From: a virus | Taxonomy: Duplodnaviria; Caudoviricetes | Virus record (IMG/VR): IMGVR_UViG_3300031951_000164 | Coordinates: 1 to 60,514 of that record | Strand: one strand, 5' to 3' | DNA: 60,514 nt | In this document: piece after piece, positions 14,930 to 58,613 of the stretch | Layout: every line of letters begins with the position of its first letter | Numbering within the stretch: the stretch's first letter is position 1 | Notes under the pieces: model-generated | Told to the model about the DNA's origin: nothing | Seen by the model: only the letters and a program-made list of their open reading frames with translations | Database searches by the model: none | Translations under genes and position numbers: made by a program

Positions 14930-15159
14930 TGTTTATCCTCAGGTTCCGTTTTTCCTTTTAAACCAAGGGCTGCTCCACCAGCGGCAAGCAGAGTTGACAG
15001 ACCAGTGCCATAAGCAATATAGTCTGTGGGTTTGTCCATGTAAAGACCAAGAAAAGCGAACACAATAAAACTTAATACAGACATGAACCAAATAATTCGA
15101 CCAACGTCAAGGCTTCTGTTATCCTTACCTGTGAATAGAGTTATCCATAGGCTTCTCAT
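14926..15159 (-). CDS. putative holin
   Basis: 77 aa, two TM segments, charged C-terminus, directly upstream of spanins. Confidence 0.6.
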   Translation of the reverse strand: MRSLWITLFTGKDNRSLDVGRIIWFMSVLSFIVFAFLGLYMDKPTDYIAYGTGLSTLLAAGGAALGLKGKTEPEDKQ

Positions 15160-15845
15160 ACTGGCTTCTTCCTCCTAAGCATGTTCATCTTTTTCTTTAG
15201 TTGCGCTGCATAATTCGTTGTCGGATCAGTAATCGTCGGAACAGCGCCGCCAGCAACAGAAACAGCAGGAGCTTCCTCTTTGTTTAGCCTTGCAGTTATT
15301 TTTCCCATAATTCTATCTTGTTGGTTTCTCTTAGTTCCAAAATATGGGTGCTTGCCGTATAACTGTTGGTTCTTTATAGAACCTTTAAGCGTTCTCAGCT
15401 GTCGCTCGCGCTTTTGCGATAATTCTTCATAAACGGAAGAAGATTCTGGTATTGTTCTGTTTCCAAATTTATTGTCTACGGCAGCTTTAAAATAAGATGT
15501 GCCGCTGAGTTTAGCCTTCAGCGACTTGGTTTTAGCCTCTGATGATTTTATTTGCTGTTTCAGCTTTTCTTTTCTTTGCCTTTCTTTTTTCACGCGATCA
15601 ACCGCACCTCCTGGTCTGGTTGCTGCCCTGTATCCCAGTGCCCCAGCTGCTGCACCTAATGCCAATGTCCCCAGCAATTCATTGAGCTTCTTTTTCGGTC
15701 TATCGTGCATTCCTGTTGGGGCTGTAGTCAACTCATGAGAAACGTGTGGCTCGCGCCGATGAGTTGCGGCGTGTCTGCTAGGATATTTCTTCCCAGATCC
15801 CAACCTTATTGACTGTTCTCTTAGTTCTCTAAAGCTCTTAGGCAT
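15156..15845 (-). CDS. basic modular putative internal head protein
   Basis: MPKSFRELREQ start; LNE, YEELS and KEEAP Glu sites. Confidence 0.6.
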   Translation of the reverse strand: MPKSFRELREQSIRLGSGKKYPSRHAATHRREPHVSHELTTAPTGMHDRPKKKLNELLGTLALGAAAGALGYRAATRPGGAVDRVKKERQRKEKLKQQIKSSEAKTKSLKAKLSGTSYFKAAVDNKFGNRTIPESSSVYEELSQKRERQLRTLKGSIKNQQLYGKHPYFGTKRNQQDRIMGKITARLNKEEAPAVSVAGGAVPTITDPTTNYAAQLKKKMNMLRRKKPV

Positions 15846-16216: not shown

Positions 16217-16581
16217 TCGTCAGCCGAATGTCTCACTCTCGTTAGGAAATCACTATCAGAAGACCCTTCAGTATATTCCAAAACGTCAATTCCACCTTGT
16301 ATTTCGATGATGTCTTCTTGTTGAAGAATCTGAGCAAACATGGAATATCCAACAGGCTCCTCGTCTATTACCACATACAGAAAGAGGTCGTCTTCGCCCT
16401 CTATTTTGTATATTGTGTCTTCATCAACACTCAGTCCGCCAGGAAACTGTATTTCGTGATCCGTGAAGATCGAATGCAGTATAGTTTCAATGGCGTCGAC
16501 TGAGCTAAAGTGTCTGTGAGAAAGCTCATCCAATTTTTCGTTTATGATTTCTATTGTAGCATAATCTACTTCTTCGTTCAT
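16213..16581 (-). CDS. acidic hypothetical protein
   Basis: 122 aa, ATGA-type overlaps with neighbours. Confidence 0.65.
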   Translation of the reverse strand: MNEEVDYATIEIINEKLDELSHRHFSSVDAIETILHSIFTDHEIQFPGGLSVDEDTIYKIEGEDDLFLYVVIDEEPVGYSMFAQILQQEDIIEIQGGIDVLEYTEGSSDSDFLTRVRHSADD

Positions 16582-18770
16582 ATTCCCCTCACTCCGCCTC
16601 TATTGGCGTCTAAACTAATTACAGGATCAATTTCTATTTTAGCAGCACGGCTACCAGTTGCAGTTTTCCCGTTGGCTTGATTTGTTCCCTGCTTGTCGAC
16701 TGCTTTGCGAATCACTTCACGAATAATATTTCTTGTTTCGCTGACAGTCTTGGCTTTGGTATCAGGATTCATTTTGCTAACGAGCTTCTCAACGCCAGCT
16801 TTCGGTTGCTGTATGGGAGCAGCTTCCGAGAGGTTTCTATACTTCCACTTGCCGTCTTCATGATCGGCAATCGCAAGCGTCTTGCCTGTCTCATGGTGAA
16901 TCATATGAAGGGAAACTTTCTTGCCCGTCTTCTTGGCTATGTTCGCCGCATGTCTGCCCGCATCTTGCGCACCCTTCTCGCCCGCGCCCATACGATCACC
17001 AGCCTTGTAGTGCCGCCCATCTACATGGATCTGAGTGTGATAGCCTTGATAATCACGGCTCTTGCTTCTCTCTTCATGTTCTTTGGCTCTTGACATAGCC
17101 ACATGATGAGGAACACCCTGCGCTCTCAGGTCTTTGTATACATCCTCACCAGTTGCTTCTTCCAACTTCGCCTTCGACTTCTTCTTGGTCACAAGCAATC
17201 CAGCTTTGTTGCGTTTTGCATTTCCACCAGCCTTCTTTATTCTTGCGATAAGCTGTTTGGTTGCATCCCTACCAACAGATTCTTTAACTGGATGCACTCT
17301 CTTCGCAATCACTCTAGCGATTTGTCTGTCCTTTTCTTTTTCATCATCAGAGAGACCGCCATACGCACCAGTCAACTTAGAGCGTCTTTCTTTTTGCTCT
17401 GGGCTTTGGTTTGTGCTGGTTAAAGCGTGGTGAGACCAACCGCGAGACTTCCCACCATAATCAGCCGGAGATCCATGAATGGCTTTTGATATGGTTTCGA
17501 TGTGCTCAGGATCGTGTGGGTTTCCGCCAGCCTTTTTGATTGCTCTGGCAGCACGCAATCCAGCAACTGCGGAAGAGCGAGTTGCACCAGCACCAAAATT
17601 AGTCTTTGGATCTACAGAAGGATCATGTGGACCATATGATGGATTTGCTGCATGACTTGCTGCAGTTATTTTATATGCGAGACCTTTGGGATTTGAAGAT
17701 TTCATTTCATCCATCTGGTCGGATTCTTCATTCACAGAATGAATGAACGACAGGTCTTTATGAACTTTATATCCAGCGTTTCTATAATGCTTCTCTGCCG
17801 TCTCTATAGCCTTTTGTTGACTTGATGCGTTTACGTTGACTCTTACGTCTTTCTTATCACCACTCGCTACATCACGATGAGATATTGTCAAGCCAACCTT
17901 ATATCTTTTTCTACCGACAGCTTCTTCCTTCATCGTATCGCAATCGCACTGACCAGGAGTGTCTTTCTTGTACCTCTTGGTCAGCTTCGTGGTTCCCCAC
18001 TCTCTGTCCTTTGGTTCATTGCTTTCTTCTTTTACATGAATCATTCTTTTCTTCTTCCCCTTGGTGTGGTCAATTATGGAGAGATGTTTTCCAGACTTCA
18101 CCTCTCCGCTTGAAACTTCCCAATGACCATCCTTGATTTTTTGCATAACATGTTTCATGGAATGAGCTGGAAGACCGTAGTTCTCTTTTTCTTCCTTAAT
18201 TTCTTTAGCACTCCAATTGGTACTTCCAAGACCGCTTGAATTCATAAGTTCAGCTGCATGTTGAGAACTTTTAGCTTTTTTGATAATATTTGCAACAAGC
18301 CTTTCTCTTTCGGAATTGCTTCCGTTGTGCTTATATGCATGTTGCGCGGGGCTTATATTGACCCCAGCATGACTGGCAAAAACATGACCTTTGGGGGTTC
18401 GGTATATATGATGAACATTTCCTAAAGAGTCTTTTAATGTTATATGAAGTTTCTCAACTTCTTCCTTAACGTATGCGTGTACGGATATTTTGTCGGCGTC
18501 ATATCCCTTACTCTTAAGGCGTCTTCGATGTTCCCCTGCATGAGCAATTGCTTCTTCATATGAATCGTGTTTGGAAACATCACGCCCGTTGTTCAGAACT
18601 CGGTAATGTGAGACATCGTGTTTGGTTCTATGGGAAAGCGGAATTTCTCTTTCCTCATTGGCAGGAACACAATTCGGAACCTTTCTTCCATTCTTCATCT
18701 TCATGCCGACAGCTGTATAGCCTTTCCAGCATGCTTTCTTCAGACCACCAGTGGGTTCTTTGACTGCCAT
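16578..18770 (-). CDS. His/Lys-rich modular putative internal head polyprotein
   Basis: CWKGY..VPNCVP and REWGT..TPGQ motifs, RyR-like YGGLSDDEKEKDR, modules separated by xxEE linkers. Confidence 0.65.
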   Translation of the reverse strand: MAVKEPTGGLKKACWKGYTAVGMKMKNGRKVPNCVPANEEREIPLSHRTKHDVSHYRVLNNGRDVSKHDSYEEAIAHAGEHRRRLKSKGYDADKISVHAYVKEEVEKLHITLKDSLGNVHHIYRTPKGHVFASHAGVNISPAQHAYKHNGSNSERERLVANIIKKAKSSQHAAELMNSSGLGSTNWSAKEIKEEKENYGLPAHSMKHVMQKIKDGHWEVSSGEVKSGKHLSIIDHTKGKKKRMIHVKEESNEPKDREWGTTKLTKRYKKDTPGQCDCDTMKEEAVGRKRYKVGLTISHRDVASGDKKDVRVNVNASSQQKAIETAEKHYRNAGYKVHKDLSFIHSVNEESDQMDEMKSSNPKGLAYKITAASHAANPSYGPHDPSVDPKTNFGAGATRSSAVAGLRAARAIKKAGGNPHDPEHIETISKAIHGSPADYGGKSRGWSHHALTSTNQSPEQKERRSKLTGAYGGLSDDEKEKDRQIARVIAKRVHPVKESVGRDATKQLIARIKKAGGNAKRNKAGLLVTKKKSKAKLEEATGEDVYKDLRAQGVPHHVAMSRAKEHEERSKSRDYQGYHTQIHVDGRHYKAGDRMGAGEKGAQDAGRHAANIAKKTGKKVSLHMIHHETGKTLAIADHEDGKWKYRNLSEAAPIQQPKAGVEKLVSKMNPDTKAKTVSETRNIIREVIRKAVDKQGTNQANGKTATGSRAAKIEIDPVISLDANRGGVRGI

Positions 18771-18771
18771 C

Positions 18772-21024
18772 TTATGCTCCTTTTGACACCGACTTGATCA
18801 TCCAGCCCAGTTTCTTGTGAGCATCGATCTTGTCTTGGAGGAAGTTTGAGAGACCAATCTCACCAGCAGCCTCTGCTACTTTGTAGCCATTCGTCAGACC
18901 AGCAAGAATCTTGCTATTGTCAGCAAGCAGAGAACCGAACATCTCGGCTGGAGTTTGTACTGACGAATCGTCAATAGAAGTAGATCCCTTGAGTTCGGTC
19001 AGCGAACGCGGAGCATACTCGCCCAGAGCACGAATCTCTTCGGCGATTGGATCAATCGTATCGAACAGCTGCTCATAGACATCGCCAAAAAACTTGTGAT
19101 ACTCAGGGAAGTTGGCTCCTTCGACATTCCAGTGGAACGTGTGCGCCTTGAAGTACATATGGAACGCATCAGCAAGGATAGCCTTCATCGCAGCAGAAAG
19201 AGCTGGTGTTGCTTCTTCTGCCAGATAGCTTTCTTTCATCATCTTCGACTTCTTACGAAGAAGTTTGAAGTCATGAGCATCAATCTTGCCATTCTCGTTG
19301 GCATCAATTCTACGCTGCCTGCCGAGCAGACGCTCGGCGATATGGCTGGTTTCTTCTTCCATCTTATCAGACTTAGAGGGTATGCTTACGCCAGCCCATT
19401 TAGCTTGTCTAGCTCTTCTCTGTTCAATTCTTTCTTGGGCATCTTTAAATGCTTTGGCTAGTTTTGGGTCAGCACGAAGCATCCAGCCTGGTTTGTGGTT
19501 CCCTTTGCCCATATATGGGGCTTCGTCAATCTGCTCGACTTCTTCATTTGTTTTCTTTTTGCCAATCCTACTAGCACGCTCGGCTCTGAGCATTGCAAGC
19601 TGATCGTGCGTTACTCTATGAGGCATATTTGGGTTTTTCTGTTTAAATTCTTCCCAACCAGCTATCCTCTTTTCAATTTCAGCATTTGTCATAGATGCAA
19701 TATGTTTTGCAGCATCGTATTTTTTGCCGTAGTTGCCACCTTCATCAATCTGCTCGACTTCTTCTTTCTTTAACTTTTTATCCCAAGCCTTATCCGTCTT
19801 GATATTATATTCTTTTCCACCAGGACCAATATCTGCAATTTTATAACCTATAGGCTCATTTGTTTTGACTACAACTTTTTTCTTAGCTTCTTCTGGAAGG
19901 TTCGGTTTGGGTTGCTTATTCGCTAAGTTGCCCCGTATTCTTCCCTTCAGAGAAGTATTGGACGCTTTCGTTGTCTTGCCAGTCTTAGCAACAACCTGAG
20001 CTTTTTTTCTATTTTCTAATGAAGAATGATTGTATTCGCCGCCTGTGTCACCACGCTTATCAGACGTTGCTCTCATTCCACCAGTTGATCTAGGGCTACG
20101 GTCCCAGTCGTGGTCGGGGTCAGGTTTGGCAGCACTTGAACTTCTCCACTTGGCTTTCTCTGCAATCTGCTCGGCTTCTTCTGGAAGATGCGAACCATAT
20201 CCTCTGGAGTTCTTCAGATCTGCTATTCTAGCTCTTGCATCAGCTTTTCTGTCTCCAGTCTGCTTCGGACCAGTGTCTGCTTTTTGAATCTTTCTTCCAG
20301 CAGCAACGCGATCTGCTACTGCACGCTGAGAAAGTGGAGCGGCTCCTGGCTTATGTCCACCGCCAGCTTTAAATTGTAGTGACTTTGCTTTCATTCTGTT
20401 TACCATACCAACCATGCCACGCTCATCAATCTGCTGAAATTCTTCGTACATATATCTGTCTAATATATCCAAAGCATGTTTTGGAATCTTTTGTCCTTTA
20501 TGAGAATTTTTACCTTCGTCCGCACTAGCTCCAGCGGCACGGAGATCCATTCCCTTTTGCTTTGCCTGCTTAAGAGCCTCTTCTGCTTTGTCTGCGTGAT
20601 GCTTCGGTACCTCGATTTCACCAGCCTCCTCTCTCGACCCGCCATAATTTGCTTCGACGGTGCCATGCATGAATTCATGAAGATGCGGACGGGCATTTAT
20701 TTTCACATGCTCTTCTTGGGCTTCAAAAATATTGCGCCCTTCGTCAAGTTTTTCCCACTTGTCTGTATATACATGTTTTTCACCAGTCGCATTATGAGTG
20801 AGAACAGCCTCATGTCCTTCTGGGAATTTACCTGAATCCTCTAATTTGTTTATATGGGCAGCAGCTTCGGCTTTTGATGCAAAACTTCCTAGCTTTTTCT
20901 TTCTGTCGTCCTTCTCGGGATGAACTGCATGAAGAGTGTAGCTTTCGCTCAATGTTTGCTCCATCACCTTTCTCGCGGCTTCAGCAACTGCCTTGTTGAT
21001 TTTGTCGTTGAATGGATTGTTCAT
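18772..21024 (-). CDS. modular putative internal head polyprotein with EF-hand and C-terminal Dps ferritin domain
   Basis: KAHTFHWNVEG..YHKFF..DPIAEEIR..HKKLGWM Dps motifs in 18772-19212; DANENGKIDAHDF EF-hand; EEVEQIDE linkers. Confidence 0.8.
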   Translation of the reverse strand: MNNPFNDKINKAVAEAARKVMEQTLSESYTLHAVHPEKDDRKKKLGSFASKAEAAAHINKLEDSGKFPEGHEAVLTHNATGEKHVYTDKWEKLDEGRNIFEAQEEHVKINARPHLHEFMHGTVEANYGGSREEAGEIEVPKHHADKAEEALKQAKQKGMDLRAAGASADEGKNSHKGQKIPKHALDILDRYMYEEFQQIDERGMVGMVNRMKAKSLQFKAGGGHKPGAAPLSQRAVADRVAAGRKIQKADTGPKQTGDRKADARARIADLKNSRGYGSHLPEEAEQIAEKAKWRSSSAAKPDPDHDWDRSPRSTGGMRATSDKRGDTGGEYNHSSLENRKKAQVVAKTGKTTKASNTSLKGRIRGNLANKQPKPNLPEEAKKKVVVKTNEPIGYKIADIGPGGKEYNIKTDKAWDKKLKKEEVEQIDEGGNYGKKYDAAKHIASMTNAEIEKRIAGWEEFKQKNPNMPHRVTHDQLAMLRAERASRIGKKKTNEEVEQIDEAPYMGKGNHKPGWMLRADPKLAKAFKDAQERIEQRRARQAKWAGVSIPSKSDKMEEETSHIAERLLGRQRRIDANENGKIDAHDFKLLRKKSKMMKESYLAEEATPALSAAMKAILADAFHMYFKAHTFHWNVEGANFPEYHKFFGDVYEQLFDTIDPIAEEIRALGEYAPRSLTELKGSTSIDDSSVQTPAEMFGSLLADNSKILAGLTNGYKVAEAAGEIGLSNFLQDKIDAHKKLGWMIKSVSKGA
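19522..20445 (-). repeat. four dispersed 24 bp linker repeats encoding EE(V/A/F)(E/Q)QI(D/A)E
   Basis: copies at 19522-19545, 19741-19764, 20158-20181, 20422-20445; consensus GAAGAAGTCGAGCAGATTGAYGAA. Confidence 0.85.
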
Positions 21025-22058
21025 TTAGATGTCTCCGTTATTTTTCTGAAGTTAGAGAAAGATTTCTTTTCGGCAACTGAGTATGCGGTGAGTCCAATCC
21101 CACCAGAAGGAACAGCACCTATTCTGGAGTCAAAGTATTTACCAGGATTCACGGCTGGCTTTTTGTGGACTTTTTTGCCCTTGCTTGTGTCTGCCTCGGC
21201 TTCTTTGGCTTCGGCGGCGACGACTCGCTCGGCTCTGTTGTCGGAAGACTTGGGGATTCCTCCTTCTCTCGGGTCGTTTTGGATCGCTCCTTTCTTAATG
21301 GCTCCTCTAGCGGCTCTGCCCAAAACAGCTTTTTCAGTAACTGTAGAATCTTCATTGCTTTCTCCGATGATTTCCTCAAAGAGTTGATTGATGTTTGTTG
21401 TGTCTATTTTGCCGCTCTCGACCAGCCATTTGATTGATGATGGATTGGTTGGAGCTGATGAGATGAAATTGGAAACTCCCTCAAAGAGTTCCTCAGTCCA
21501 GCCGATGATTTCCTTTCTGACCTTTTCATTCGCACGCTTGAAGTCGCGTGAGTTATCGAACAGGAAAAAGCTAGAGAAATCCTCAGAGAACGTTTTCATG
21601 TTCTTGATTGCTGAATTATACTTCATCAGTCTGGTTTGCTCAGAGAAGGTTTTGGCTCCGCTAGAAATGCGTACATCATTCCTTCTCTTTGACTCAGAGT
21701 TTTCCGTATAGACGAACACCATGGAAGTATCATATCCCATGTGCTCAAGAACTGTACGGCAAACGTTGATTTTGTTGTAGTCGTCTGCATTGCCATTGAT
21801 GAAGATGGAACGAAATGTGTCCAGTTCTCTCAATGAAGATTTTTCGACGATTGTCTTGTGTAATTTGTCGAGGCTAATCTCAGCCATTCCTGACTCTTGT
21901 AGCCCCGACTTGATAAGAATGTCTTTTCCACTGCCAGGTCCTCCCACAAGAAAGAGAGCCTTGAAGTGTTTCTGCGTGGACTCTAAAGACAATGCGCTTT
22001 TTGGCGCATGATTGATTTGTTTGAGCTGTCGTTCTTTTGTTTTCATATATTCCCACAC
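21021..22058 (-). CDS. P-loop kinase (zeta-toxin/AAA_33-like) with basic C-terminal tail
   Basis: ALFLVGGPGSGKD Walker A, MVFVYT..SKRRNDVR lid. Confidence 0.7.
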   Translation of the reverse strand: MWEYMKTKERQLKQINHAPKSALSLESTQKHFKALFLVGGPGSGKDILIKSGLQESGMAEISLDKLHKTIVEKSSLRELDTFRSIFINGNADDYNKINVCRTVLEHMGYDTSMVFVYTENSESKRRNDVRISSGAKTFSEQTRLMKYNSAIKNMKTFSEDFSSFFLFDNSRDFKRANEKVRKEIIGWTEELFEGVSNFISSAPTNPSSIKWLVESGKIDTTNINQLFEEIIGESNEDSTVTEKAVLGRAARGAIKKGAIQNDPREGGIPKSSDNRAERVVAAEAKEAEADTSKGKKVHKKPAVNPGKYFDSRIGAVPSGGIGLTAYSVAEKKSFSNFRKITETSK

Positions 22059-22084: not shown

Positions 22085-23575
22085 TTATTTTCGTTTTATC
22101 ACTATTTCCCCGGAAGCCAATCCACGCTTAAATTTATTCATATGCTCTAGGGCTTCCCCACGAGTAAAGTTCGGTCCAAGGTGTCTATGAAACTCTTCAA
22201 TGTTACTATCACGAGCCGCAGTTCTCATTGCAGTTCCTGAGAATCCATGCGATCTATTTTCGTCTGTCGGATAATGAACGTGAATCTCGTGGAATTTCTC
22301 CCCGTTCATTTCTTTTATCTTTCCAGATTCTAGAGATGACTTCAGACGTTCGGCGAAATCTTTTCTGTCGTGACCGAAATGCAAATGTAGAATTCTTCGA
22401 CCTGTTTTTGGCATGCTGTGAAATGCATGAGCGACTACTTCTCCAGCTGAAGGGGAAACGCGAAATTTGGCTTTTCCACCCCACTGCCGTTCTCCAATTT
22501 TCTCTCTTTGGGAATCTGAGTATAGGTCTGTTTTCCCAGAAAGACCAACTACGATCTTTCCTTTTTTAGACCTTGACATAGAACCACCAATATCTTCATA
22601 ATGTCCTTGGTGAGTTATCGGAGAAGCGCCCATATATGTTACATGAACGTGATGTTCCTTTTCTGTTGCACTCTCGGATACTGTATCTTTTACTCCCAAC
22701 GTAGTTCTAAGATGCTCCAGAGCAGCAGTATGATCCATCTTTTTATTGCCAGCAACCGCTGCCTTGAATCTATCATATACTTCTTGATGGCGTTCTTTCA
22801 ATATATGACGTTTAATAAGATCTGATACTCCATGGAAAGAATGAATTTTATTTTCGTCGGCTTCACTACCAAAGATCCTGTGTGTAACTTCTGATGGTTC
22901 CTTGGAAGATTTTTCAGAGGGATCAGTTCTTGATGTTGCTCCATTTGCTATTGAGAATTTGTACCTATCCAGTCCAGCAGTATTTAAAAGAATTTTATGG
23001 TGCGCGCCTTTAATTCCTTTTTTAGTGTCTTCCCAATCTGAACTTTTTACGAATTTTTCTGCTTCGGTCGGCTCATCATTCTCGTACTTAGAGGCAACAA
23101 AATCCATTTGGTGAATATGTCCAGTTTCATTATGTCGCATAAGAAGAGTAGATTCGGTTCCATGTCTCTTTTTACCAACAACAGTAAACTTGCCGAATTT
23201 GCTTCCCTCCCTTGCATGATCATAGAGAGCATCTTTATGTTCTGCAGGAATCAGCATGTCAAAATCACCAACTTCCTTTTTATGGTGTTGGAATTCTTGA
23301 TGACTCAATGAACTGTCCATGAAATGTCTAGTCGAGCCAACATAGGTGGACTTGTTGTTTATTGCTTTGCCATGGATGCCAAACAGATGTCCGCCAGTTG
23401 CTTGGCGAAACGAATGATGAAGCTGGTGAAGAGCTTCAGGAAGATCTCTTTGAAGGGATTCTCTAATCTTCGGCGTTACCTTAAAAGGAGCTGGAGAGAC
23501 TTGTTCTCCTGATTCCGTTTTGGCTTTTACGTTTCCGCCTTCTCGTAAGAAAAACTTAAATGCCTTAAATGACAC
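22085..23575 (-). CDS. fusion of Pol-beta-like nucleotidyltransferase and HIGH-type cytidylyltransferase-like domain
   Basis: YVGST..GDFD..QMDF; PITHQGH, GHDR, SGTAMRTAA; probable GTG start at 23575 with GAGG SD (MSFKAFKFFLREGG). Confidence 0.65.
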   Translation of the reverse strand: MSFKAFKFFLREGGNVKAKTESGEQVSPAPFKVTPKIRESLQRDLPEALHQLHHSFRQATGGHLFGIHGKAINNKSTYVGSTRHFMDSSLSHQEFQHHKKEVGDFDMLIPAEHKDALYDHAREGSKFGKFTVVGKKRHGTESTLLMRHNETGHIHQMDFVASKYENDEPTEAEKFVKSSDWEDTKKGIKGAHHKILLNTAGLDRYKFSIANGATSRTDPSEKSSKEPSEVTHRIFGSEADENKIHSFHGVSDLIKRHILKERHQEVYDRFKAAVAGNKKMDHTAALEHLRTTLGVKDTVSESATEKEHHVHVTYMGASPITHQGHYEDIGGSMSRSKKGKIVVGLSGKTDLYSDSQREKIGERQWGGKAKFRVSPSAGEVVAHAFHSMPKTGRRILHLHFGHDRKDFAERLKSSLESGKIKEMNGEKFHEIHVHYPTDENRSHGFSGTAMRTAARDSNIEEFHRHLGPNFTRGEALEHMNKFKRGLASGEIVIKRK

Positions 23576-23576
23576 G

Positions 23577-24548
23577 TTACCCTCTCCCATTCTGGGGGAC
23601 GTTTCTACTTTTAAACGCTTCTTTATTGGATGGATCAGCCTTATATGCTCTGAAGGTATCGGAAGTAACCTTAAATCTGGGAGCATTTGGGTTTCTGTTG
23701 GATGGATGGACTACAATCCCCTCGGAACCAGATCCCCATTTTGGTGTCAAATTCATTCTTTTAACGTGAGTATCAACTTTATCAGAAACAGATTTCTTTA
23801 TTTTGTTGAACTTTTCTATTTCAGCCATCTTGGCTTCTTTGTTTTTGTTTGTCGTTCTGCTACCAAGAAGTTCGTGGTCCAAACGATGGAATTGTTCTCT
23901 TTCGTCTGAGACGTCTACATGCATGTGTTTATGTGGAATCTTGTCATCATCAAAGTTAATTTCGTCATTGGAGGCGAATTTCTTTAAATCCTCAACATTG
24001 TGATCTCTGTTTTCTGGTAGCTTTGTATGAACAACATATTTTCCTACTGATCCCATATGAGAAGGATCATAAGAAGTTCCCACGAATTTAATCTCGTTGG
24101 CTCTTTCTTCGGATTGCCTGCCGAAAGGGCGATAGAACATTTCTCCTCTGAGTTTTACTTCTTGTCCGGTTCTATTGTGGTGGTGTTGAAGGTAATGTTG
24201 AAGACCTTCGTTTTTAGCTAGGGTATCATGAACGTGCCCAAACGCCATGGCAGAAGTTAGATCCACTGGCTTATTGGTCTCATTGGCTCTTCGAATGGCT
24301 CTATTGTGAAAATCTTGTGAGCTTCTCATTTTTTCGGAGCCAGAACCAGAGCTTTGAGTATAAAACCCGTGCTCATCCCAACCCATCATATGGGTCATTC
24401 CATCGGTCTTTTCAGTTATATCGTGGAGATGAACTTTCCCATCACCAGTAAGAGCGCCAAATTGATTATGGTCCATTGTTGTGATATGAGGAAGACCCTG
24501 CCTAATTCCAGCCTCAGAAAGGATTCTTTTAATTTTATCGAGTCTCAC
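23577..24548 (-). CDS. ATP-dependent ligase/capping-superfamily nucleotidyltransferase (RNA-ligase-like)
   Basis: motif I TEKTDG, III RGEMF, IV SEGIVV, V RFKV. Confidence 0.6.
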   Translation of the reverse strand: MRLDKIKRILSEAGIRQGLPHITTMDHNQFGALTGDGKVHLHDITEKTDGMTHMMGWDEHGFYTQSSGSGSEKMRSSQDFHNRAIRRANETNKPVDLTSAMAFGHVHDTLAKNEGLQHYLQHHHNRTGQEVKLRGEMFYRPFGRQSEERANEIKFVGTSYDPSHMGSVGKYVVHTKLPENRDHNVEDLKKFASNDEINFDDDKIPHKHMHVDVSDEREQFHRLDHELLGSRTTNKNKEAKMAEIEKFNKIKKSVSDKVDTHVKRMNLTPKWGSGSEGIVVHPSNRNPNAPRFKVTSDTFRAYKADPSNKEAFKSRNVPQNGRG

Positions 24549-24588: not shown

Positions 24589-25985
24589 TCAAAAGAAAAG
24601 TTCTTGAATTTCTCGTATTTGTCTCCATGACCATTCATCATAGGTTTGTATGATTGCTGCGGTGGCGGTTCGTCCTGCCCTGAGTCGGCGATCTGAGTCT
24701 GAGCCACATCATACAGCCTCATTCTGGCTCGGTCGATCCCAAGAACGAACCTCTTATTACTGGATGGATCAGAGAATCGATTCTTGAGTTGTTTCACAAG
24801 GATCTGATTGACGGCATCAAGCTGTTCGGTTGCAACGATGGAGATCATAAAGTCAACGGTTGCCGCAGTTCCAAAGCTCTCGGAGATATCTTCCATTCCT
24901 GGGTCAGAGTTGGAGAAACCAGAACGAGTCGTTTGAGTTGCAGTTACAACAGGAACATCAAACTCAACCGCAAGTCCACGAAGCTCCTCGGCAATTGCTT
25001 TGATGTAGGAATAGCTGTTAACGTTCGCTCCATGCTTCAAACGAGAAGAGGCGCAGATGTTCATGTAATCGATGAAGATTATATCTGGAACAAAGTTACG
25101 CTTGAGCGCCAGATCATTCAACAATGCACGGAAGTGAGCCGATGACGCCGAAGCTGTAGGATATTCCTTGATGATCAGCTTACCCTTGGTCTTCGACTCA
25201 AGGTTGCGTATCTTCTTCAGATAGATATCCTTCGGCATCGTTTCCAACTCGTCGACACGAACGTTCAATAGATTGGCGTCAATCCGCTCGGCGATACGTT
25301 CTTCTGCCATTTCCATAGTGATGTACAGAACGTTTTGATTCTCAGTCAATGCTGACGCCGCCATATGACACATGAACAGAGACTTACCGACACCTGTACC
25401 TGCAAGAATACAAGAAAGAGTTTTCCTAGGCAATCCACCGCGAGTGATCTTGTTCATGTACTCAAGATCAAACGGAATGCGTTTCTCCGTTCGATGATAA
25501 AACTCATATCGCTTTTCCGCGTTGTCGATATAGTCGTGACCGACGTAAGGATCAAAGGAAACTGATAGCGCATCAGTCAACAGAGAGGGAATTGCTCCCT
25601 TGCTGAACTGTTTGTTAGATCCATCAAGAATATGAATGGACTCTAGGATGGCATTGTGAATGGCTTTCTCTTGGCAGAACTTCTCGGAAGATTCAAGAAG
25701 CCATTGATCGTCGCTAACATCATCGTTTGTTTTGACTTCATCAATGATGTCAATGGCTTCTTGAAACTCATCAGCAATCAATCCTGGACGATTACTGAGT
25801 TCAACTCTGATCGATTCATACGAAGGGATCTTGTTGTACTTATGAATGAACTTCGATACTTCCTGTAGAACTGTTCGTTCTGTTTTATCGTGGAAGTAAT
25901 CTTCTTTAATGAACGGCAGAATCTTTCGAGCGAACTGTTCGTTTTGGAACAGGTTCTTCAATATAATCTTCTCTATGCTCATCAT
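24585..25985 (-). CDS. 41: replicative DnaB-like helicase (T4 gp41)
   Basis: AGTGVGKS, TMEMAEERIAERID, IDYMNI and QLKNR motifs. Confidence 0.95.
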   Translation of the reverse strand: MMSIEKIILKNLFQNEQFARKILPFIKEDYFHDKTERTVLQEVSKFIHKYNKIPSYESIRVELSNRPGLIADEFQEAIDIIDEVKTNDDVSDDQWLLESSEKFCQEKAIHNAILESIHILDGSNKQFSKGAIPSLLTDALSVSFDPYVGHDYIDNAEKRYEFYHRTEKRIPFDLEYMNKITRGGLPRKTLSCILAGTGVGKSLFMCHMAASALTENQNVLYITMEMAEERIAERIDANLLNVRVDELETMPKDIYLKKIRNLESKTKGKLIIKEYPTASASSAHFRALLNDLALKRNFVPDIIFIDYMNICASSRLKHGANVNSYSYIKAIAEELRGLAVEFDVPVVTATQTTRSGFSNSDPGMEDISESFGTAATVDFMISIVATEQLDAVNQILVKQLKNRFSDPSSNKRFVLGIDRARMRLYDVAQTQIADSGQDEPPPQQSYKPMMNGHGDKYEKFKNFSFD

Positions 25986-26364
25986 TTGGTTTCTGTTCCT
26001 TTCTCTCTTTGTCATACTCAATGGTTTGCCAGAAAATTGACAGAAGAATGTTTCCCACGGTTTTTAGGAACTTCTTATCTTGATAGAAGTCTTTCCTGAG
26101 CTTGTCAGTAAACTGGATCACCTCAATATTATACGTTGCATCTGCCGTGCCGTCAACGTTTTCGTCGCCAATTTTTATAGTGTCATAGCAGTACACAACT
26201 CCAGCATATCTGCCTTTCCGAATGCGAATTGGAAGAGTCTGAGATTTTTCGACAGAAACGTCAATCGCATATTCGTAGAAGTCATCAGGGGCATAGTATT
26301 TGTTCCTGTATGCTATACCCAGCTTCTCAATTTTACTCTGTATCCACTTCATCATCTTCGTCAT
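25906..26364 (-). CDS. hypothetical protein in the T4 gp40 position
   Basis: between uvsX and 41; IRIRKGRYAGVVYCY..VGNIL. Confidence 0.55.
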   Translation of the reverse strand: MTKMMKWIQSKIEKLGIAYRNKYYAPDDFYEYAIDVSVEKSQTLPIRIRKGRYAGVVYCYDTIKIGDENVDGTADATYNIEVIQFTDKLRKDFYQDKKFLKTVGNILLSIFWQTIEYDKERKEQKPNDEHREDYIEEPVPKRTVRSKDSAVH

Positions 26365-27397
26365 CTCCTGCTATGCCAAGAATGGGAGTGCTTGATACCA
26401 TGTAGGTCTTCTTCACATATTCTTGAAATTGTTTCGAGTTTAGTATAGGGTTCCAGAAAGATTCAGTGTCAGTATCCTTCAGACGATACTTCTTGTCTTC
26501 CATAGCACCAGTCGTAAGATCAGTTTTGGCATACCATCCATTAGAAGGTTTCTGTACAAATCCACCCTCCAAAGCAATGTCAAGCAACCCCGACCATTTA
26601 CTTATACCACCCTCAAACGACACAGATACAGGGATCTTGGACTTCTCGCGAACGTAACGAGACTTCTCCACGTTGATGATGAAGTTGTAACCAACGATTT
26701 CAGTTCCTTCTTTTTCTTGCTGACGACCAAGGATGAAAATGTTATCAGCAGAATAGTAAGAACCAGTGCCGCCACCAACGATATCTTTAGGATAAAGACC
26801 AATTTCCTTGTAGGTGTGATTCACAACAACCATCGGAATGTCTTTCATCGTCAGGTGGGGCGTGATCATACGGAACAACGATTTGATTTGTTTTGCGCGA
26901 CTCATATCCGCAACGGACTTTTGATCCAGCGCATCTTCTACTTCTTTCTTCGAAGCAAGGTTGCCGATCGAATCAATCACGATGATGAGTTTATCAGTAC
27001 GATCAACGTTTGTCAGCTGCTGCATGATATCAAACTTGAGTTGCTCAACATCAGTGATAGGAGTATGAAGAACTCGATCCTGATCAATACCAAACGAAGT
27101 GAAGTACGATTGCGGAGTACCAAACTCAGAATCATAGAACAACAAAGCAGAGTCAGGATACTTGTCAAGATATGCTTTTGCCATCAGCAACGAGAAGCAA
27201 GTCTTGAAGTGTTTTGATGGACCAGCCCACATGGTCAGACCTGGAGTGAGTCCGCCGTCAAGACGACCAGACAACGCAACGTTGATAACGGGAACCGAAG
27301 TTGTAATCATATCCTTGTCAGTGAAGAACTTCGACTTCGCCAGAATAGCAGATTCTTTGATTGTAGAATTTTTCTTAATCTTATCCAAAATACTCAT
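26333..27397 (-). CDS. uvsX: RecA-like recombinase UvsX
   Basis: AGPSKHFKT, YDSEFG, DSIGNLASKKE and GGGTGSYYSAD motifs. Confidence 0.95.
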   Translation of the reverse strand: MSILDKIKKNSTIKESAILAKSKFFTDKDMITTSVPVINVALSGRLDGGLTPGLTMWAGPSKHFKTCFSLLMAKAYLDKYPDSALLFYDSEFGTPQSYFTSFGIDQDRVLHTPITDVEQLKFDIMQQLTNVDRTDKLIIVIDSIGNLASKKEVEDALDQKSVADMSRAKQIKSLFRMITPHLTMKDIPMVVVNHTYKEIGLYPKDIVGGGTGSYYSADNIFILGRQQEKEGTEIVGYNFIINVEKSRYVREKSKIPVSVSFEGGISKWSGLLDIALEGGFVQKPSNGWYAKTDLTTGAMEDKKYRLKDTDTESFWNPILNSKQFQEYVKKTYMVSSTPILGIAGDDEDDEVDTE

Positions 27398-33333: not shown

Positions 33334-33811
33334 ACTTTTTTTCGACGACAACCCCAGCTCGCCTCAGCAGGTCGATCCCGTCCGTTCGCCGATACTCAGC
33401 CCCATACCGGACCACCCCCACTCCAGCCTGCAGTATCGCCTTGGAGCACTCAACGCAAGGCGCATGCGTTATGTACATGGTCGCGTCAAGGCAAGAATCG
33501 TGCGAGCGCGCAACTTTTAGTAGACAATTTATTTCCGAATGAATAACGAAAGGTTTCGTGACGAGCATTTCTGGTGTTATAGTTCTACTTTCGACATCGT
33601 GGTGTTCTGGTATAATTTCCTCACACTCATTTTCAAACCCTGCTGGCATACCATTCCAACCAAAGGAAATTATATTTCCGTTTTTGACTAGCACGCTTCC
33701 GACTTGCAACCTTCGAGCATATGACATTTTCGCCACCCTCTCAGCCAAATCGAAATAGAAGTCATCATATCTTTTTCGTTTTAGTTCTTCCTTCGTACCA
33801 ACCATTATCAA
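33326..33811 (-). CDS. cd: dCMP deaminase
   Basis: MSYARRLQVG, GWNGMPAG, HSE and PCVEC Zn motifs. Confidence 0.92.
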   Translation of the reverse strand: MIMVGTKEELKRKRYDDFYFDLAERVAKMSYARRLQVGSVLVKNGNIISFGWNGMPAGFENECEEIIPEHHDVESRTITPEMLVTKPFVIHSEINCLLKVARSHDSCLDATMYITHAPCVECSKAILQAGVGVVRYGAEYRRTDGIDLLRRAGVVVEKKSL

Positions 33812-34463
33812 TTTCCTCGTCTGTTCGGATCAGTTTACTATTAGTTCCATCTGTTATCCATTTTTTCTTAACCCTTTCTATTTGTCCAGTTCGAACTAAT
33901 TCCCAATATTTGTTAGATATTTTTTTACAGTGCCCATTTTCTGCATTTATTTTTCCTTGGGATTTCCCACCCAACGTACAAGATTTCAATCTTATGGTTG
34001 AGTCGAAGAAAGAATTTTTATTTTCTCTTCTGCAAGTATCTGCGCCTTTTTTGCCATACTGGATTCTTTGTTCTTTCGTTAATTCCGATTGAACTCGTTT
34101 CATATGTCCCGATTTAGAATTTATTGATCCTTGTACTCTTCCTCCGAGAGAAGCATTTGTTTTCGCTTCTTCATCAGAAACCTCTCTTCCATAAAAAAGA
34201 GAAAGCCCAACTAATCCAGATTCCTTTCTTTTTTTATTACACGCCGTTCCTCCGAGGCTAGCTCGCAATTTAACGAATTCTTCGTCTTTGTTTTTTCCAG
34301 AAAGCATAAAGTAAGCACAAAGATCTTCGAATTTACCGAATTCCTCATATAAAGACATATGCGCCTGCGCGTGTTCTTCTACAGTGAGTTCAATTAAATT
34401 AGAGGGATCGTCTGAACCTCCCATATGTTTTGGTATGATGTGGTGTTTGTGTTTCATCGACAT
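33765..34463 (-). mobile_element. free-standing HNH homing endonuclease
   Basis: HHIIPKHMGGSDDPSNLIELTVEEHAQAH; repeated LGG..QG.IN...GH units; KWITDG..GWYEGR C-terminus; AT-rich. Confidence 0.85.
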
Positions 34464-46890: not shown

Positions 46891-47480
46891 TGCGCTTTTT
46901 CGAACCGTTCCAGCTTGGCTGCGTCTCTTGCCCGCCTCTTATGGATCTTGACCCGATCCTTGGCTCGCTGTAGCTTGATGGCAGGAACTCGCTTCGTGAA
47001 GCAAGTGCCGTTGAGGTGATCCATCTCATGTTGAATGATTCTTGCCGTGAACCCGTCGAAGGTTTCTTCCCTTTCGATGTTTCGCTCGTCGCGCCAACGA
47101 ACTTTTATTCTGCTTGCTCGCTTTACTCGCAAAAAGAGGTTTGGATATGTGAGGCAACCTTCTTGAATGTCATCGTTCTCGCCAGTAGTCTCAACGATCT
47201 CTGGATTGAAGAAGCAAAAGAATGTCTTGCCATGACCCATGACGAACACTCGATAAGGTAGACCGACTTGGTTAGCAGAAAGCCCCAGCCCTCCCTTCTC
47301 TGCCATAGTGTGGAGAAGAGAAGTCGCAAGTTGCGATGGGTGCATCGGCGGTCTATTGAAATCGAACTCTTGTGTTCTTTCCCAGAGAACCTTCGCGTGT
47401 GGAGGAACAAGATCATAGATCATATAGTCCATCATGTTGCCATCAACGTATTTTACAATTCGCTTACCCTTCGGTGTCAT
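46881..47480 (-). CDS. def: peptide deformylase
   Basis: GLGLSANQ, EGCL and QHEMDHLNG motifs. Confidence 0.93.
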   Translation of the reverse strand: MTPKGKRIVKYVDGNMMDYMIYDLVPPHAKVLWERTQEFDFNRPPMHPSQLATSLLHTMAEKGGLGLSANQVGLPYRVFVMGHGKTFFCFFNPEIVETTGENDDIQEGCLTYPNLFLRVKRASRIKVRWRDERNIEREETFDGFTARIIQHEMDHLNGTCFTKRVPAIKLQRAKDRVKIHKRRARDAAKLERFEKAQKA

Positions 47481-49204: not shown

Positions 49205-49210
49205 GTTACC

Positions 49211-50272
49211 TCATTGTCTAACGTGTGCTTCAACATACACTTCGCGCATGTATGTCTTGAGCTTTTCTTTGTCGAGATCAATTTGCAAACTATCAACATA
49301 TTTAGAAAGCGTGGTCATAGTATCGTCAGCCTGATCAATCACATCTTCGTCTGAGATCTGCGTGTAATCAGTGAAGTCTTCAACCACAGAAACATCATAT
49401 GGTTGACTCTTATACAATTTATCCATGAACACATCAAACAGATAAGGGTCAATCTTTTTAGCGACAATCACTTTCACTATCGTGTTAGTGTACTTGCTAA
49501 AGTTCTTGCTCTTAACTGTATCGACAGTTTCATGGTCGTCATTGTAAACAACCTTATGGAACATTTTAAATGGATTTTCGATGAAAGTCAACTCTCTTGT
49601 TTCTGTATCGAAGATATGGAATCCACGTTTGTCGTTGTAGTCTGACCAAGTCATTTCCCCTGGCGTTCCAACATAGTGTATGTTTCCAGAACTAGACTTG
49701 TGATGAAAGTGCCCAGAAAGAACAACATCATACTTGGCTAGAACGCTTCTGTCCATTCCCTCATGACAAATGTTTCCGCGATCCATCTCGAAACCAGCAA
49801 GCTCAAAGTGCCCCATGCAAATTTGAGAATTGCTGTTGAGAATAAACGCCATAACTTGTTGTTCGTTCTCTTCGCAAATCCATGGAATCAAGTCAACATC
49901 AACACCATCAAAAGTCATTGTCTCTGGATATGTGATGACATGAATGTTTTGATATTCACGAAGCGTCAGCTCGATGGAGTTTACCTTCAACGTGTTCTTA
50001 AAGAAGATGTCATGGTTGCCAACTAACGTTGTAAGTTGGATGTTATTAAACTCAAGCATATCAAAGAAGTATTGCTTGGACAGATACAGAGTATTGTAGT
50101 TAACATACTTCCGTCGATCGAACAAATCACCGAGCTGAATGATTTTTCTTATTCCCATTTCACGAAGAGTCGGTAATAATGTTTCCTGATAGAACTTCTT
50201 GTAGTAATTGTGGAAATGAAGCGAATCATTCCTCATGCCAAAATGTGTGTCTCCAACAATTGCTATCTTCAT
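49211..50272 (-). CDS. 47: SbcD/Mre11-like nuclease (gp47)
   Basis: GDTHFG, GDLFDRR, GNHD and SGHFH motifs. Confidence 0.95.
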   Translation of the reverse strand: MKIAIVGDTHFGMRNDSLHFHNYYKKFYQETLLPTLREMGIRKIIQLGDLFDRRKYVNYNTLYLSKQYFFDMLEFNNIQLTTLVGNHDIFFKNTLKVNSIELTLREYQNIHVITYPETMTFDGVDVDLIPWICEENEQQVMAFILNSNSQICMGHFELAGFEMDRGNICHEGMDRSVLAKYDVVLSGHFHHKSSSGNIHYVGTPGEMTWSDYNDKRGFHIFDTETRELTFIENPFKMFHKVVYNDDHETVDTVKSKNFSKYTNTIVKVIVAKKIDPYLFDVFMDKLYKSQPYDVSVVEDFTDYTQISDEDVIDQADDTMTTLSKYVDSLQIDLDKEKLKTYMREVYVEAHVRQ

Positions 50273-58605: not shown

Positions 58606-58613
58606 TCGTTCTC

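Follow-up and report, generated by a model that had tools for sequence, protein, structure and literature searches.

Candidate prohead protease sites as linkers between exchangeable modules in polyproteins of T4-like phages

Introduction

Whether selection can act on a short repeat within a coding sequence through recombination, and not through the encoded peptide alone, is a general question that becomes directly testable if our reading of the locus described here is right. The window of our analysis, namely the whole stretch of 60,514 nt, is a fragment of a T4-like phage genome in which UvsX and a gp21-type S77 protease are encoded, and in which a 24-nt repeat recurs between unrelated protein modules. 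The first-pass annotation of this DNA proposed that the repeat is both a site of the prohead protease and a joint at which in-frame cargo cassettes are swapped between head-protein genes.

Results

Linker repeats and the genes that contain them

A six-frame scan of the window with the pattern EE.[EQ]Q[ILMV].E gave exactly six matches, all in frame and on the minus strand, four of them in the 750-aa ORF o750 and two in the 343-aa ORF o343 (Table 1), at the positions named by the first-pass annotation. The encoded peptide is EE(V/A/F)(E/Q)Q(I/M)xE. The literal 24-mer of that annotation, searched for with at most three mismatches, matched three of the six copies (19522, 19741, and 58860), with 0 matches expected and none in any of 100 shuffles; the remaining three were found only with a codon-degenerate pattern (6 matches vs. 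0 for the reversed-pattern control). The claimed near-identity of copies 2 and 6 and the presence of GAA GAA ... CAG (codons 1, 2, and 5) in all copies were borne out, as was the unrelatedness of the intervening modules, the eight of which are mutually dissimilar (best BLASTP E-value of 0.28). Directly past a seventh, degenerate linker, the nucleotide homology between the window and its relative L007 restarts.

In IMG/VR, the linker was found at no fewer than 132 sites in at least 119 stretches, and at every site it is in frame within an ORF of at least 137 aa. A search of prokaryote assemblies (596 billion bases) with the pattern yielded 57 stretches. Relatives of the window contain up to six linkers per ORF and seven per locus, with the consensus K/N-EEVEQ(I/V/L/M)-D-E.

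Table 1. Positions of linkers, linker-bearing genes, and relevant enzymes in the window
Feature	Position	Strand	Remarks
o730, 730-aa polyprotein ORF	16578-18770	-	first module CWKGY...VPNCVP
o750, 750-aa polyprotein ORF	18772-21024	-	leader, five unrelated modules, EF-hand-like module, Dps/ferritin
Degenerate seventh linker	19333-19359	-	EEETSHIAE; L007 counterpart EEVEQVSE
Linker copy 4	19522-19545	-	EEVEQIDE
Linker copy 3	19741-19767	-	K-EEVEQIDE (core 19741-19764); 27/27 nt identical to L007 linker
Linker copy 2	20158-20190	-	HLP-EEAEQIAE (core 20158-20181); 20162-20190 identical at 28/29 nt to 58864-58892
Linker copy 1	20422-20445	-	EEFQQIDE
UvsX-like recombinase	26333-27397	-	PHROG 97, E 1.4e-88
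SbcCD-like gp46/47 homologs	47480-50272
Prohead protease, T4 gp21 homolog	56735-57385	-	Pfam Peptidase_S77 PF03420, E 3.8e-37; PHROG 207, E 3.5e-76
91-aa basic protein	57388-57663		N-terminus MLTFSQFLSE, then A; T4-like
In-frame extension, 811 nt	58606-59416	-	missing in L206/L207; homology runs 60514-59417 and 58605-56000
o343, 343-aa ORF	58614-59645	-	gp67 prohead-core homolog (about 76 first codons) and three cargo modules in frame
Linker copy 6, in o343	58860-58892	-	HLP-EEVEQIAE (core 58860-58883)
Linker copy 5, in o343	59121-59144	-	EEVEQMTE
Junction linker	59400-59423	-	EEVEFTNE; L206 homology stops right past GAAGAAG

The product of o750 comprises at least seven segments without mutual similarity, i.e., many unrelated domains in one polypeptide, as described for polyvalent proteins. 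Its conserved N-terminal leader of 22-27 aa and its tail are common to the orthologs P0004-P0010, and its C-terminal domain (residues 611-745) matches Pfam Ferritin PF00210 (E 7.5e-20), the single Pfam domain of this protein. In the neighboring o730, the module joints are minimal, (V/I/M)-K/N-E-E, and a Pfam scan revealed no domain. Among ten polyproteins of relatives, two contain HicA_toxin; a peptidase domain was detected by Pfam scans neither in these ten nor in o750 or o730. The genomic context of o750 and o730 consists of replication genes, outside the head module. The internal-protein genes of T4 are likewise dispersed. The assignment of o750 as a head protein is a prediction in which the tie to the prohead core comes solely from the gp67 fusions described below, and the packaging of o750 and o730 is likewise presumed from sequence.

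The gene o343 is located between the portal gene and the gene in the gp68 position. Its first ~76 residues are 22% identical to T4 gp67, with 17 invariant columns, and because this similarity is weak, the gp67 assignment is carried by gene position. The gp67-like part follows the portal directly and fits the description of gp67 as a protein of about 80 aa that starts with a helix and has an acidic tail; it also aligns with the 80-aa gp67 of the relative L206, which is of the same length as that of T4. The DNA flanking the 811-nt extension is 79-87% identical to that of L206 and L207, and the extension begins at a junction linker. The gp67 gene of L206 ends with GAA GAA GCC AAG CAG ATT and a stop codon, and is thus itself linker-like at its end. 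In L293, the gene in the gp67 position encodes 257 aa with three other modules, and in L120 a linker-bearing ORF lies directly downstream of a Pfam Portal_T4 gene. A single-sequence AlphaFold2 model of o343 (mean pLDDT of 52, pTM of 0.19) was too poor to judge linker disorder. An SH3-like module apparently shared by o343 and the Dps polyprotein of L007 was discounted (pairwise E 6e-4 over 26 aa).

Module exchange among related phages

The order and content of modules differ between orthologs, contrary to the invariance that would speak against exchange. In the series of Dps-polyprotein orthologs, module C is located at residue 290, 190, 33, 373 or 315, and in P0010 modules B and F occur in reversed order. 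The same modules were also found in different host genes, as the first-pass annotation had predicted. A module of the gp67-type protein P0013 is 91% identical to module E of the window, the Dps polyprotein P0008 contains a 70% identical copy of the module that ends the gp67-like gene of the window, and module C is present in three kinds of host genes, encoding Dps-type, CWKGY-type, and gp67-type proteins. An attempt to group the modules by single-linkage clustering was abandoned, as everything merged into one cluster of 248, because the segments hold further unrecognized joints.

The internal ends of nucleotide homology (n = 541) are associated with linkers: 127 (23.5%) lie no more than 6 nt from a strict linker vs. 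4.6% for random positions, and with a looser linker definition the numbers are 201 (37.2%) vs. 7.1%. These ends are not independent events, because a single event recurs in several relatives. Ends at other hydrophobic-x-E sites are also enriched (25.3% vs. 9.8%), whereas those at KK are depleted (4.8% vs. 10.2%). Even with the loose definition, about half of the homology ends are located away from recognizable linkers. Breakpoints unrelated to linkers, an outcome that would contradict linker-associated exchange, were not what we observed.

All four junctions between the window and L007 are at linker or K-E-E sites. In o730, the homology stops at 17921, past AAG GAA GAA G, and a region of ~608 nt (~18041-18648) is missing in L007, with short NEE/KEE repeats on both sides. 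The L007 match of linker copy 3 lies between non-homologous modules, although the two genomes are elsewhere only 77-82% identical. The most informative pair, L011 and L096, is 95-97% identical; two modules are replaced with linkers as boundaries, and two indels each comprise exactly one module and one linker. The single EEVEQVDE linker that remains in this comparison is a chimera of both L011 copies, i.e., the crossover occurred inside the linker. The exchange points are thus located inside the conserved coding motifs or adjacent to them.

As concerns the enzyme, UvsX may mediate the exchange between linkers, and homologs of gp46/47 are encoded as well. For recombination driven by strand exchange, 21-27 nt is a short repeat length, and annealing or template switching would be alternative routes. 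An integrase, as would be expected of an integron-like array, was not found among the 33 window ORFs scanned with Pfam or PHROGs, the window representing 36% of the genome.

Conservation of the linker peptide and of its codons

Where the six window copies share a residue at positions 1-6, they also share its codon. With the codon usage of the window (GAA 0.63, GTC 0.21, GAG 0.37, CAG 0.44, and ATT 0.39), full agreement of codons 1-6 has a probability of ~1e-8 if the copies are assumed to be independent, and under the same assumption this probability is ~1e-4 with the linker-specific codon frequencies of the clade. Genome-wide codon bias, which the first-pass annotation had named as a possible source of the codon identity, does not account for it. 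Inside linkers, CAG accounts for 0.74 vs. 0.31 outside in the same ORFs, GAG at codon 4 for 0.48 vs. 0.21 elsewhere, and ATT for 0.77 vs. 0.56. Since the share of CAG in EQ and QI dipeptides elsewhere is 0.38-0.50, the context of neighboring codons is a partial explanation only. The linker codon identity is 0.737 within a locus vs. 0.654 between loci, a value that none of 1000 permutations reached, but this excess is modest and partly confounded by contig-specific codon usage.

Across the clade, EEVEQIDE is encoded by 62 distinct 24-mers among 132 sites; therefore, the peptide is the main conserved feature, and selection for the peptide alone can keep the motif. Accordingly, the claim that identity at synonymous positions exceeds the needs of a protease site fits the window copies but has to be tempered for the clade, where synonymous sites vary freely.

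The variety of 24-mers favors an explanation in which the linker is constrained as a peptide only, either as a protease site or as a flexible acidic spacer, with sequence-independent illegitimate recombination followed by selection of linker junctions, and with DNA identity arising incidentally from common descent and the codon context. The partial dependence of CAG preference on context fits such an explanation, as do the enrichment of homology ends at minimal hydrophobic-x-E and EE sites with little repeat DNA and the fact that three of the four window/L007 junctions are at K-E-E or V-M-E and not at full linkers. We nevertheless consider it rather unlikely. The chimeric linker of L096, together with an indel between EEVELDE copies identical at 21 of 21 nt, bears the mark of an exchange inside the repeat itself, and a linker identical over 27 nt between non-homologous modules is difficult to reconcile with a by-product of descent, as are the agreement of codons 1-6 even under linker-specific frequencies and the higher codon identity within a locus. 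Nucleotide identity, beyond the peptide, may thus promote exchange.

Linkers as predicted protease sites

T4 gp21 cleaves after L/I-x-E (PMC9026906), and both the protease and the motif are present in the window: the linker ends with hydrophobic-x-Glu, all six copies ending I/M-x-E. A gene for the S77 protease was detected above the Pfam cut-off in each of the five largest linker-bearing contigs and in none of 14 control genomes. Among 108 EExEQ sites that are free of selection by the DNA pattern, position 6 is V, I, L or M in 103 and position 8 is Glu in 102 and Asp in one, while position 7 is variable. The maturation site of T4 gp23 (LTE, then A) aligns to ILNE, then T, in gp23 of the window. 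The N-termini of T4 IPIII and IPII are MKTYQEFIAE, then A, and the 91-aa basic protein encoded next to the protease begins in a similar way. None of the six linkers is an N-terminal targeting peptide of about 10 residues, all of them being internal. The gp21 homolog is presumed to cut each linker after hydrophobic-x-Glu.

The resemblance of the linker to the T4 targeting peptide (YQEFIAE vs. EEFQQIDE) is also compatible with a motif that is not cleaved but acts as a structural or targeting element, such as a helix N-terminal cap or a capsid-targeting or scaffold-binding patch, in polyvalent proteins that remain intact. In about 40-45% of 239 linker contexts, the linker precedes one helical module with the consensus L-S-K-x-T-L-G-S, and in a low-confidence model the second linker of o343 begins a predicted helix. 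However, many unrelated sequences also follow the linker, including all six in the window. The strict final Glu combined with a free penultimate residue fits a Glu-specific protease and not a helix cap, and module borders are still marked where the motif is reduced to hydrophobic-K-E-E, in o730 and in other joints. We regard an uncleaved motif as improbable, and cleavage by gp21 remains the preferred reading.

Assembly support and search scope

A reading of the linkers as an artefact of assembly or as chance matches in acidic coding DNA of low complexity, for which one could point to the Glu-rich motif and to the occurrences of the pattern in prokaryote assemblies, can practically be dismissed in view of the empty shuffles and reversed-pattern controls, of a motif that is always in frame in long ORFs, and of contigs of other runs that bridge linkers.

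Linker 19522 is bridged, with the same flanks, by record 7 of run X3, record 14 of X4, and record 20 of X6; linker 19741, with window flanks, by record 21 of X6; linker 20158, with window flanks, by record 8 of X3 and record 16 of X4; and linker 20422 by record 8 of X3 only. The arrangement of o750 is not a chimera of a single assembly, because contigs of other runs bridge its four linkers with the same flanks; runs X3 and X4 may stem from the campaign of the source itself. Four runs (X3, X4, X6, and X7), of which two are labeled freshwater, contained pieces at least 99% identical to the window. The runs were compared as contigs, in which stretches without cover are uninformative. Three joints in these runs, 19770->19255 (going back 516), 19550->19754 (skipping 203), and 18204->19539, match over only 21-31 nt on each side, with 85% likeness, and were rejected as recombination in this phage because their source is other organisms of higher abundance, in which the linker and the EF-hand-like module are also present. 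The relatives are all metagenome assemblies, and individual ones may contain repeat-induced misassemblies. The final k-mers used by common assemblers, however, exceed the 24 nt of the repeat.

In a tblastn search of a phage collection, only the Dps part of o750 was matched, in two records of one cyanophage, and a typical polyprotein of relatives (L114) gave matches to single modules only, in 23 records; at this sensitivity, no cultured phage in the collection has the linker-polyprotein organization. The string EEVEQIDE was not found in searched literature text (subscription journals lying outside its scope), nor was a linker-polyprotein system found among titles and abstracts of the literature on prohead proteases, ejection proteins, and T4 internal proteins.

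Discussion

The best overall explanation of our results, to which we assign a probability of about 0.6, is that gp21-cleavable linkers join swappable capsid cargo modules in polyproteins of T4-like phages. According to this explanation, the last three residues of the acidic inter-module linker would be the recognition motif of gp21, with the cut after Glu. An N-terminal carrier, which in o343 and its relatives would be the gp67 core protein itself and in o750 the conserved leader of about 22 aa, would bring the polyprotein into the prohead core. Once assembly is complete, cleavage by the protease at every linker would free the modules within the capsid, among them Dps-like, EF-hand-like, and SH3-like ones, as well as HicA in relatives. 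Because the short in-frame sequence is the same at each joint, modules would be gained, lost, replaced, and reordered at linkers, and the exchange might take place both between linker copies of one genome and between co-infecting relatives.

As to the cassette swapping proposed by the first-pass annotation, exchange at linkers and changes of module host were found, while the DNA-level part of the claim has to be tempered, since it is mainly the peptide that is conserved. A stronger version, in which the linker has a dual use and is selected both as a peptide cut site and as a portable DNA recombination joint, is a tentative possibility. The modules delivered by the head, comprising Dps-like, HicA-like, and EF-hand-like ones as well as many of unknown function, would then form a pool that co-infecting T4-like phages could share without a dedicated integrase and from which modules could be plugged in frame into any carrier gene, gp67 included.

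If the preferred explanation is true, T4-like phages of a large uncultured group, mostly from freshwater, fill their capsids with small proteins in changeable sets, following the rule of carrier, linker, module, linker, module, which would account for the diversification of proteins injected alongside phage DNA. The linker would then be a sequence tag for hundreds of candidate injected proteins, nearly all of unknown function, and a natural design for the packaging of foreign proteins in T4-type capsids, the counterpart of engineered T4 targeting fusions.

The closest known system is that of T4 internal proteins, in which a short targeting peptide ending with L/I-x-E is cut by gp21 and the cargo is released inside the capsid (PMC9026906, PMC3012670); the possibility has been raised that the targeting sequence evolved as a means of loading varied proteins (PMC9026906). 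As in the internal proteins and in engineered expression-packaging-processing fusions, a hydrophobic-x-Glu peptide is joined to diverse cargo in the linker polyproteins. However, each of the T4 cargos has a small gene of its own, with a single 10-residue peptide at the N-terminus, whereas the window linkers are internal, repeated, and join several cargos. Additionally, in some linker-bearing phages the carrier is gp67 itself, unlike in the targeting-sequence system. The T4 prohead core proteins gp67, gp68, and gp22 are cut to fragments by gp21 (PMC9026906, PMC5694885). While T4 gp67, as described there, is without cargo, the window, L293, and L120 carry at least three extra modules after gp67.

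Polyvalent proteins of phages and conjugative elements contain many unrelated domains per polypeptide and are predicted to enter the host with DNA; some are proteolytically processed, and recombinational variability has been suggested for some (Iyer et al. 2017, PMC5512222). Built-in autopeptidase domains are invoked in their case, whereas no peptidase was detected in the linker polyproteins, which thus lack this part of the repertoire. The modules of the latter are mostly tiny and unannotated, with a fixed, presumably cleavable linker at each joint, and the accessible text of PMC5512222 mentions neither 'linker' nor HicA. In the giant phages phiKZ and SPN3US, a protease related to gp21 cuts head and ejection proteins at several x-x-Glu sites (PMC5694885). 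Those extra cuts are in long propeptides that are discarded, and neither a repeated conserved linker nor module exchange is reported in the accessible parts of that source.

Recombination between conserved in-frame motifs of T-even tail-fibre adhesins was reportedly described by Tetart et al. in 1998. In the T-even gp38 adhesin, exchanges in or near conserved glycine-rich motifs that flank hypervariable segments give rise to chimeric proteins (Trojet et al. 2011, PMC3157838). The adhesin motifs, as presented in that work, form the structural core of one domain, whereas the linker separates independent modules of packaged proteins, presumably as a protease site, and occurs in several genes. Finally, PeSLs are short dispersed repeats of T4-type phages that mark the ends of insertions, deletions, and replacements (2010, PMC2839356). 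They are intergenic and regulatory and shuffle whole genes, whereas the linker is coding and shuffles in-frame protein modules.

The window and its linker-bearing genes

The window, a 60.5-kb fragment of the viral record (estimated completeness 36%), derives from a T4-like phage and carries nearly all its long ORFs on the minus strand. In addition to the genes listed in the table, it encodes DNA polymerase, a DnaB-like helicase, primase, a clamp loader and SbcCD-like nuclease subunits. Its gp23 is at most ~60% identical to the capsid proteins of cultured cyanophages. A homing-endonuclease-like ORF (33765-34463, minus strand; PHROG 655, E 1.3e-18) is located among the replication genes. In the related contig L007, the gene of DnaB-like helicase, uninterrupted in the window (25397-25399), contains an insert of ~1.15 kb (L007:1210-2361) with an opposite-strand HNH-like ORF and an in-frame intein-like sequence.

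Coordinates of the linker-bearing ORFs and of other T4-like genes in the window
Feature	Position	Remarks
o750	18772-21024	4 linkers; last 140 residues form a Dps/ferritin domain
o343	58614-59645	2 linkers; flanked by the portal gene and the gp68-position gene
Portal	59645-60493	
Prohead protease gp21	56735-57385	Peptidase_S77
Scaffold gp22	55565-56686	
Major capsid protein gp23	54171-55550	
UvsX-like recombinase	26333-27397	

The six linker repeats reported in the first-pass annotation are real, correctly located, in frame and confined to two ORFs, the Dps-ending polyprotein o750 and the gp67-like o343. The 28/29-nt identity between 20162-20190 and 58864-58892 holds as well, and the modules between the linkers are indeed unrelated (best E-value between modules 0.28). 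The window copies encode EE(V/A/F)(E/Q)Q(I/M)xE. A scan of IMG/VR with a codon-degenerate EEVEQIDE pattern matched at least 119 stretches with at least 132 sites, each within an ORF of at least 137 aa. The loci listed and the window together encode at least 153 distinct linker-bearing proteins with one to six linkers each (94, 42, 11, 3, 2 and 1 proteins, respectively, among the matches listed). Two short contigs binned in bacterial MAGs, with three (L320) and two (L327) copies of the pattern, are probably phage fragments placed in bacterial bins.

In two of four metagenome runs (X3 and X4), the summed contig depth at 18656-18809, 19118-19579 and 19734-19887 is 20-60-fold that elsewhere in the window, and this excess is far weaker in X6 and X7. 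Together, these bins span the CWKGY module, an EF-hand-like module and one linker, and their depth indicates that the same modules evidently occur in much more abundant phages of the same samples.

Module exchange at the linkers

Comparison of relatives, all of them metagenome assemblies, demonstrates at the level of sequence that modules are exchanged at linkers. The flanking genes are 77-82% identical in the window and L007. Homology within o750 stops after the leader (KVME) and restarts directly past a degenerate linker, which reads EEETSHIAE in the window and EEVEQVSE in L007; the interior is wholly different. The window linker at 19741-19767 is identical, 27/27 nt, to a linker that lies between non-homologous modules in L007. 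In o730, the polyprotein ORF starting with the CWKGY module, the window has ~608 extra nt bordered on either side by NEE/KEE repeats, and a second homology break with L007 directly follows AAG GAA GAA G. In several relatives (L209, L210, L213, L214 and L007), a cytidylyltransferase-like part, an AAA/zeta-like part and a CWKGY...VPNCVP module form one long ORF, and the same three parts are separate genes in the window (22085-23686, 21021-22058 and 16578-18770), which shows that gene fusion and fission also occur along this gene row.

Contigs L011 and L096 are 95-97% identical. In one pair of their ORFs, identity extends through the end of an EEAEQIDE linker, two whole modules differ, and identity returns within the next linker. 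In another, L011 has one module and one linker more. At its 5' end, the single linker of L096 has the variant of one L011 copy and at its 3' end that of the other, as expected if a crossover took place inside the repeat. Two EEVELDE copies identical at 21/21 nt flank another indel.

Orthologs of o750 found by protein search share its leader and its EF-hand-like/Dps tail at 84-98% identity and differ in their interiors. Module order varies: module C begins at residue 290, 286, 190, 33, 373 or 315, module A, the first in o750, is found at 176-338 in protein P0010, and module F, which comes after B in the window, comes before it in P0010. The proposal that one module may occur in different host genes is borne out by modules E, A and C and the last module of o343, each of which was found in another polyprotein type. 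Modules E and A match P0013 (91% and 73% identity), module C matches P0012 (85%) and is also present in P0006, whose first module is CWKGY, as in o730, and the last module of o343 has a counterpart in P0008, a Dps polyprotein (70% over 47 aa). The N-terminus of P0012 resembles gp67 (31% over 67 aa), and those of P0012 and P0013 resemble the gp67-position ORF of L120 (40-50%).

The EF-hand-like module (19255-19335, minus strand; consensus IDxNKNGKIDAHDF), located directly ahead of the Dps domain, is assigned to EF-hand Pfam families in the precomputed domains of relatives and falls below the cut-off in our Pfam scan. It is among the most widely reused modules, N-terminal in some proteins and internal in others. 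HicA_toxin modules above the Pfam cut-off are present in polyproteins L125:1939-6231 (minus strand) and L119:5624-7345, and HicA occurs in many further relatives, making a toxin-antitoxin nuclease a possible capsid cargo. L125 also has an intein-like insertion (below cut-off) inside another module.

Breakpoints coincide with linkers more widely. Nucleotide HSPs between different loci (at least 150 nt and 70% identity) have 541 distinct internal ends. A strict linker is at most 6 nt away from 127 of them (23.5% vs. 4.6% at random), and a looser linker definition raises this number to 201 (37.2% vs. 7.1%). In protein alignments, linkers are touched by 425 of 4207 ends (10.1% vs. 3.7%). Ends outside recognisable linkers are enriched at hydrophobic-x-E (25.3% vs. 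9.8%) and EE (10.7% vs. 4.2%) and depleted at KK (4.8% vs. 10.2%). Since these ends do not represent independent events, and a linker may terminate an alignment just by being the conserved part, the explicit pairs outweigh these statistics.

Constraint on the linker DNA

The main rival explanation is that a peptide function is kept and the linker DNA has no role of its own. The claim of DNA-level conservation holds in the window, where codons 1-6 agree wherever the residue is the same, and is mixed across the clade, where at least 62 different 24-mers among the matches listed spell EEVEQIDE. The agreement in the window involves codons that are non-preferred there (GTC, GAG, CAG and ATT); by our own arithmetic, with copies taken as independent, its chance is ~1e-8 from window codon usage and ~1e-4 from the linker-specific codon usage of the clade. 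Compared with the rest of the same ORFs, linkers prefer CAG (0.74 vs. 0.31), GAG at codon 4 (0.48 vs. 0.21), GAA at codons 1-2 (0.95-0.96 vs. 0.79) and ATT (0.77 vs. 0.56), and the context of neighbouring codons explains this preference only in part. Linkers of one locus are more alike than those of different loci (0.737 vs. 0.654; reached in 0/1000 permutations), a difference to which contig-specific codon usage adds. In our reading, the peptide is the main constraint, and copies are kept locally similar by recombination or gene conversion. The window encodes homologs of UvsX and gp46/47, but the products of UvsX-type exchange would also arise at 21-27-nt repeats by annealing or template switching.

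Putative processing and carriers

The second rival explanation is that the linker remains uncleaved. The linker logo comprises K/N, EEVEQIDE and then mainly L/I/V. In 108 EExEQ sites outside the selection of the pattern, residue 6 is V/I/L/M in 103, while at residue 8 Glu is found 102 times and Asp once; residue 7 is variable. This fits the specificity of T4 gp21, which cleaves after Glu in L/I-x-E (PMC9026906). In line with this reading, the window gp23 retains L-x-E where the T4 gp23 maturation site aligns, and all five of the largest linker-bearing contigs encode an S77 protease.

The gp68-position genes and gp21 are separated by a gene for a candidate classical internal protein, very basic and of 91 aa (57388-57663, minus strand). 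The N-terminus of this protein (MLTFSQFLSE, then A) closely resembles the capsid targeting peptide of T4 IPIII and IPII (MKTYQEFIAE, then A), hence the window phage probably also employs T4-style targeting peptides. Short N-terminal peptides ending with hydrophobic-x-E are also present on ORFs 58102-58605, 15156-15845 and 23577-24548.

The first ~76 codons of o343 encode a homolog of the prohead-core protein gp67. In contigs L206 and L207, 79-87% identical to the head module of the window at the DNA level, the gp67-position gene encodes 80 aa, as in T4. Homology halts at 59417, directly after GAAGAAG, and restarts where the next gene begins (58605), so the window has an in-frame extension of 811 nt with three modules. 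The short L206 gene ends with GAA GAA GCC AAG CAG ATT and a stop, a one-base variant of linker codons 1-6. In L293, a 257-aa gene between the portal and gp68 homologs has a canonical linker attached earlier in the acidic tail, followed by three different modules, and in the more distant L120 a linker-bearing ORF directly follows the Pfam Portal_T4 gene. These cargo genes of the window, L293 and L120 make gp67 a recurrent cargo carrier. In o750 and its orthologs, the conserved N-terminal leader of ~22-27 residues is, by analogy, a putative targeting peptide.

Chance or artefact as the source of the repeats is excluded; all four o750 linkers are spanned, with unchanged flanks, by contigs of other sequencing runs, that at 20422 by X3 record 8 only (X3 and X4 are possibly not independent of the source sample). 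Most likely, a carrier (gp67 or the leader) would take the polyprotein into the prohead core, gp21 would cleave after each hydrophobic-x-Glu to release modules within the head, and, owing to the repeated joint, modules would frequently be gained, lost and exchanged in frame. For cleavage and packaging, we infer this from the motif, the protease and the carrier.

Comparison with known systems

Each part of the proposed mechanism has precedents: T4 targeting peptides, processing by gp21, the core protein gp67, polyvalent proteins, T-even adhesin exchange at conserved coding motifs and PeSL-mediated shuffling. Their combination, a fixed, putatively cleavable linker that is repeated in polyproteins, is common to different carrier genes, including gp67, and marks exchange points, was not found in the literature searched (main texts), and the word "linker" is absent from the text of Iyer et al. 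2017 on polyvalent proteins (PMC5512222). We therefore regard the case as a variant built from known kinds.
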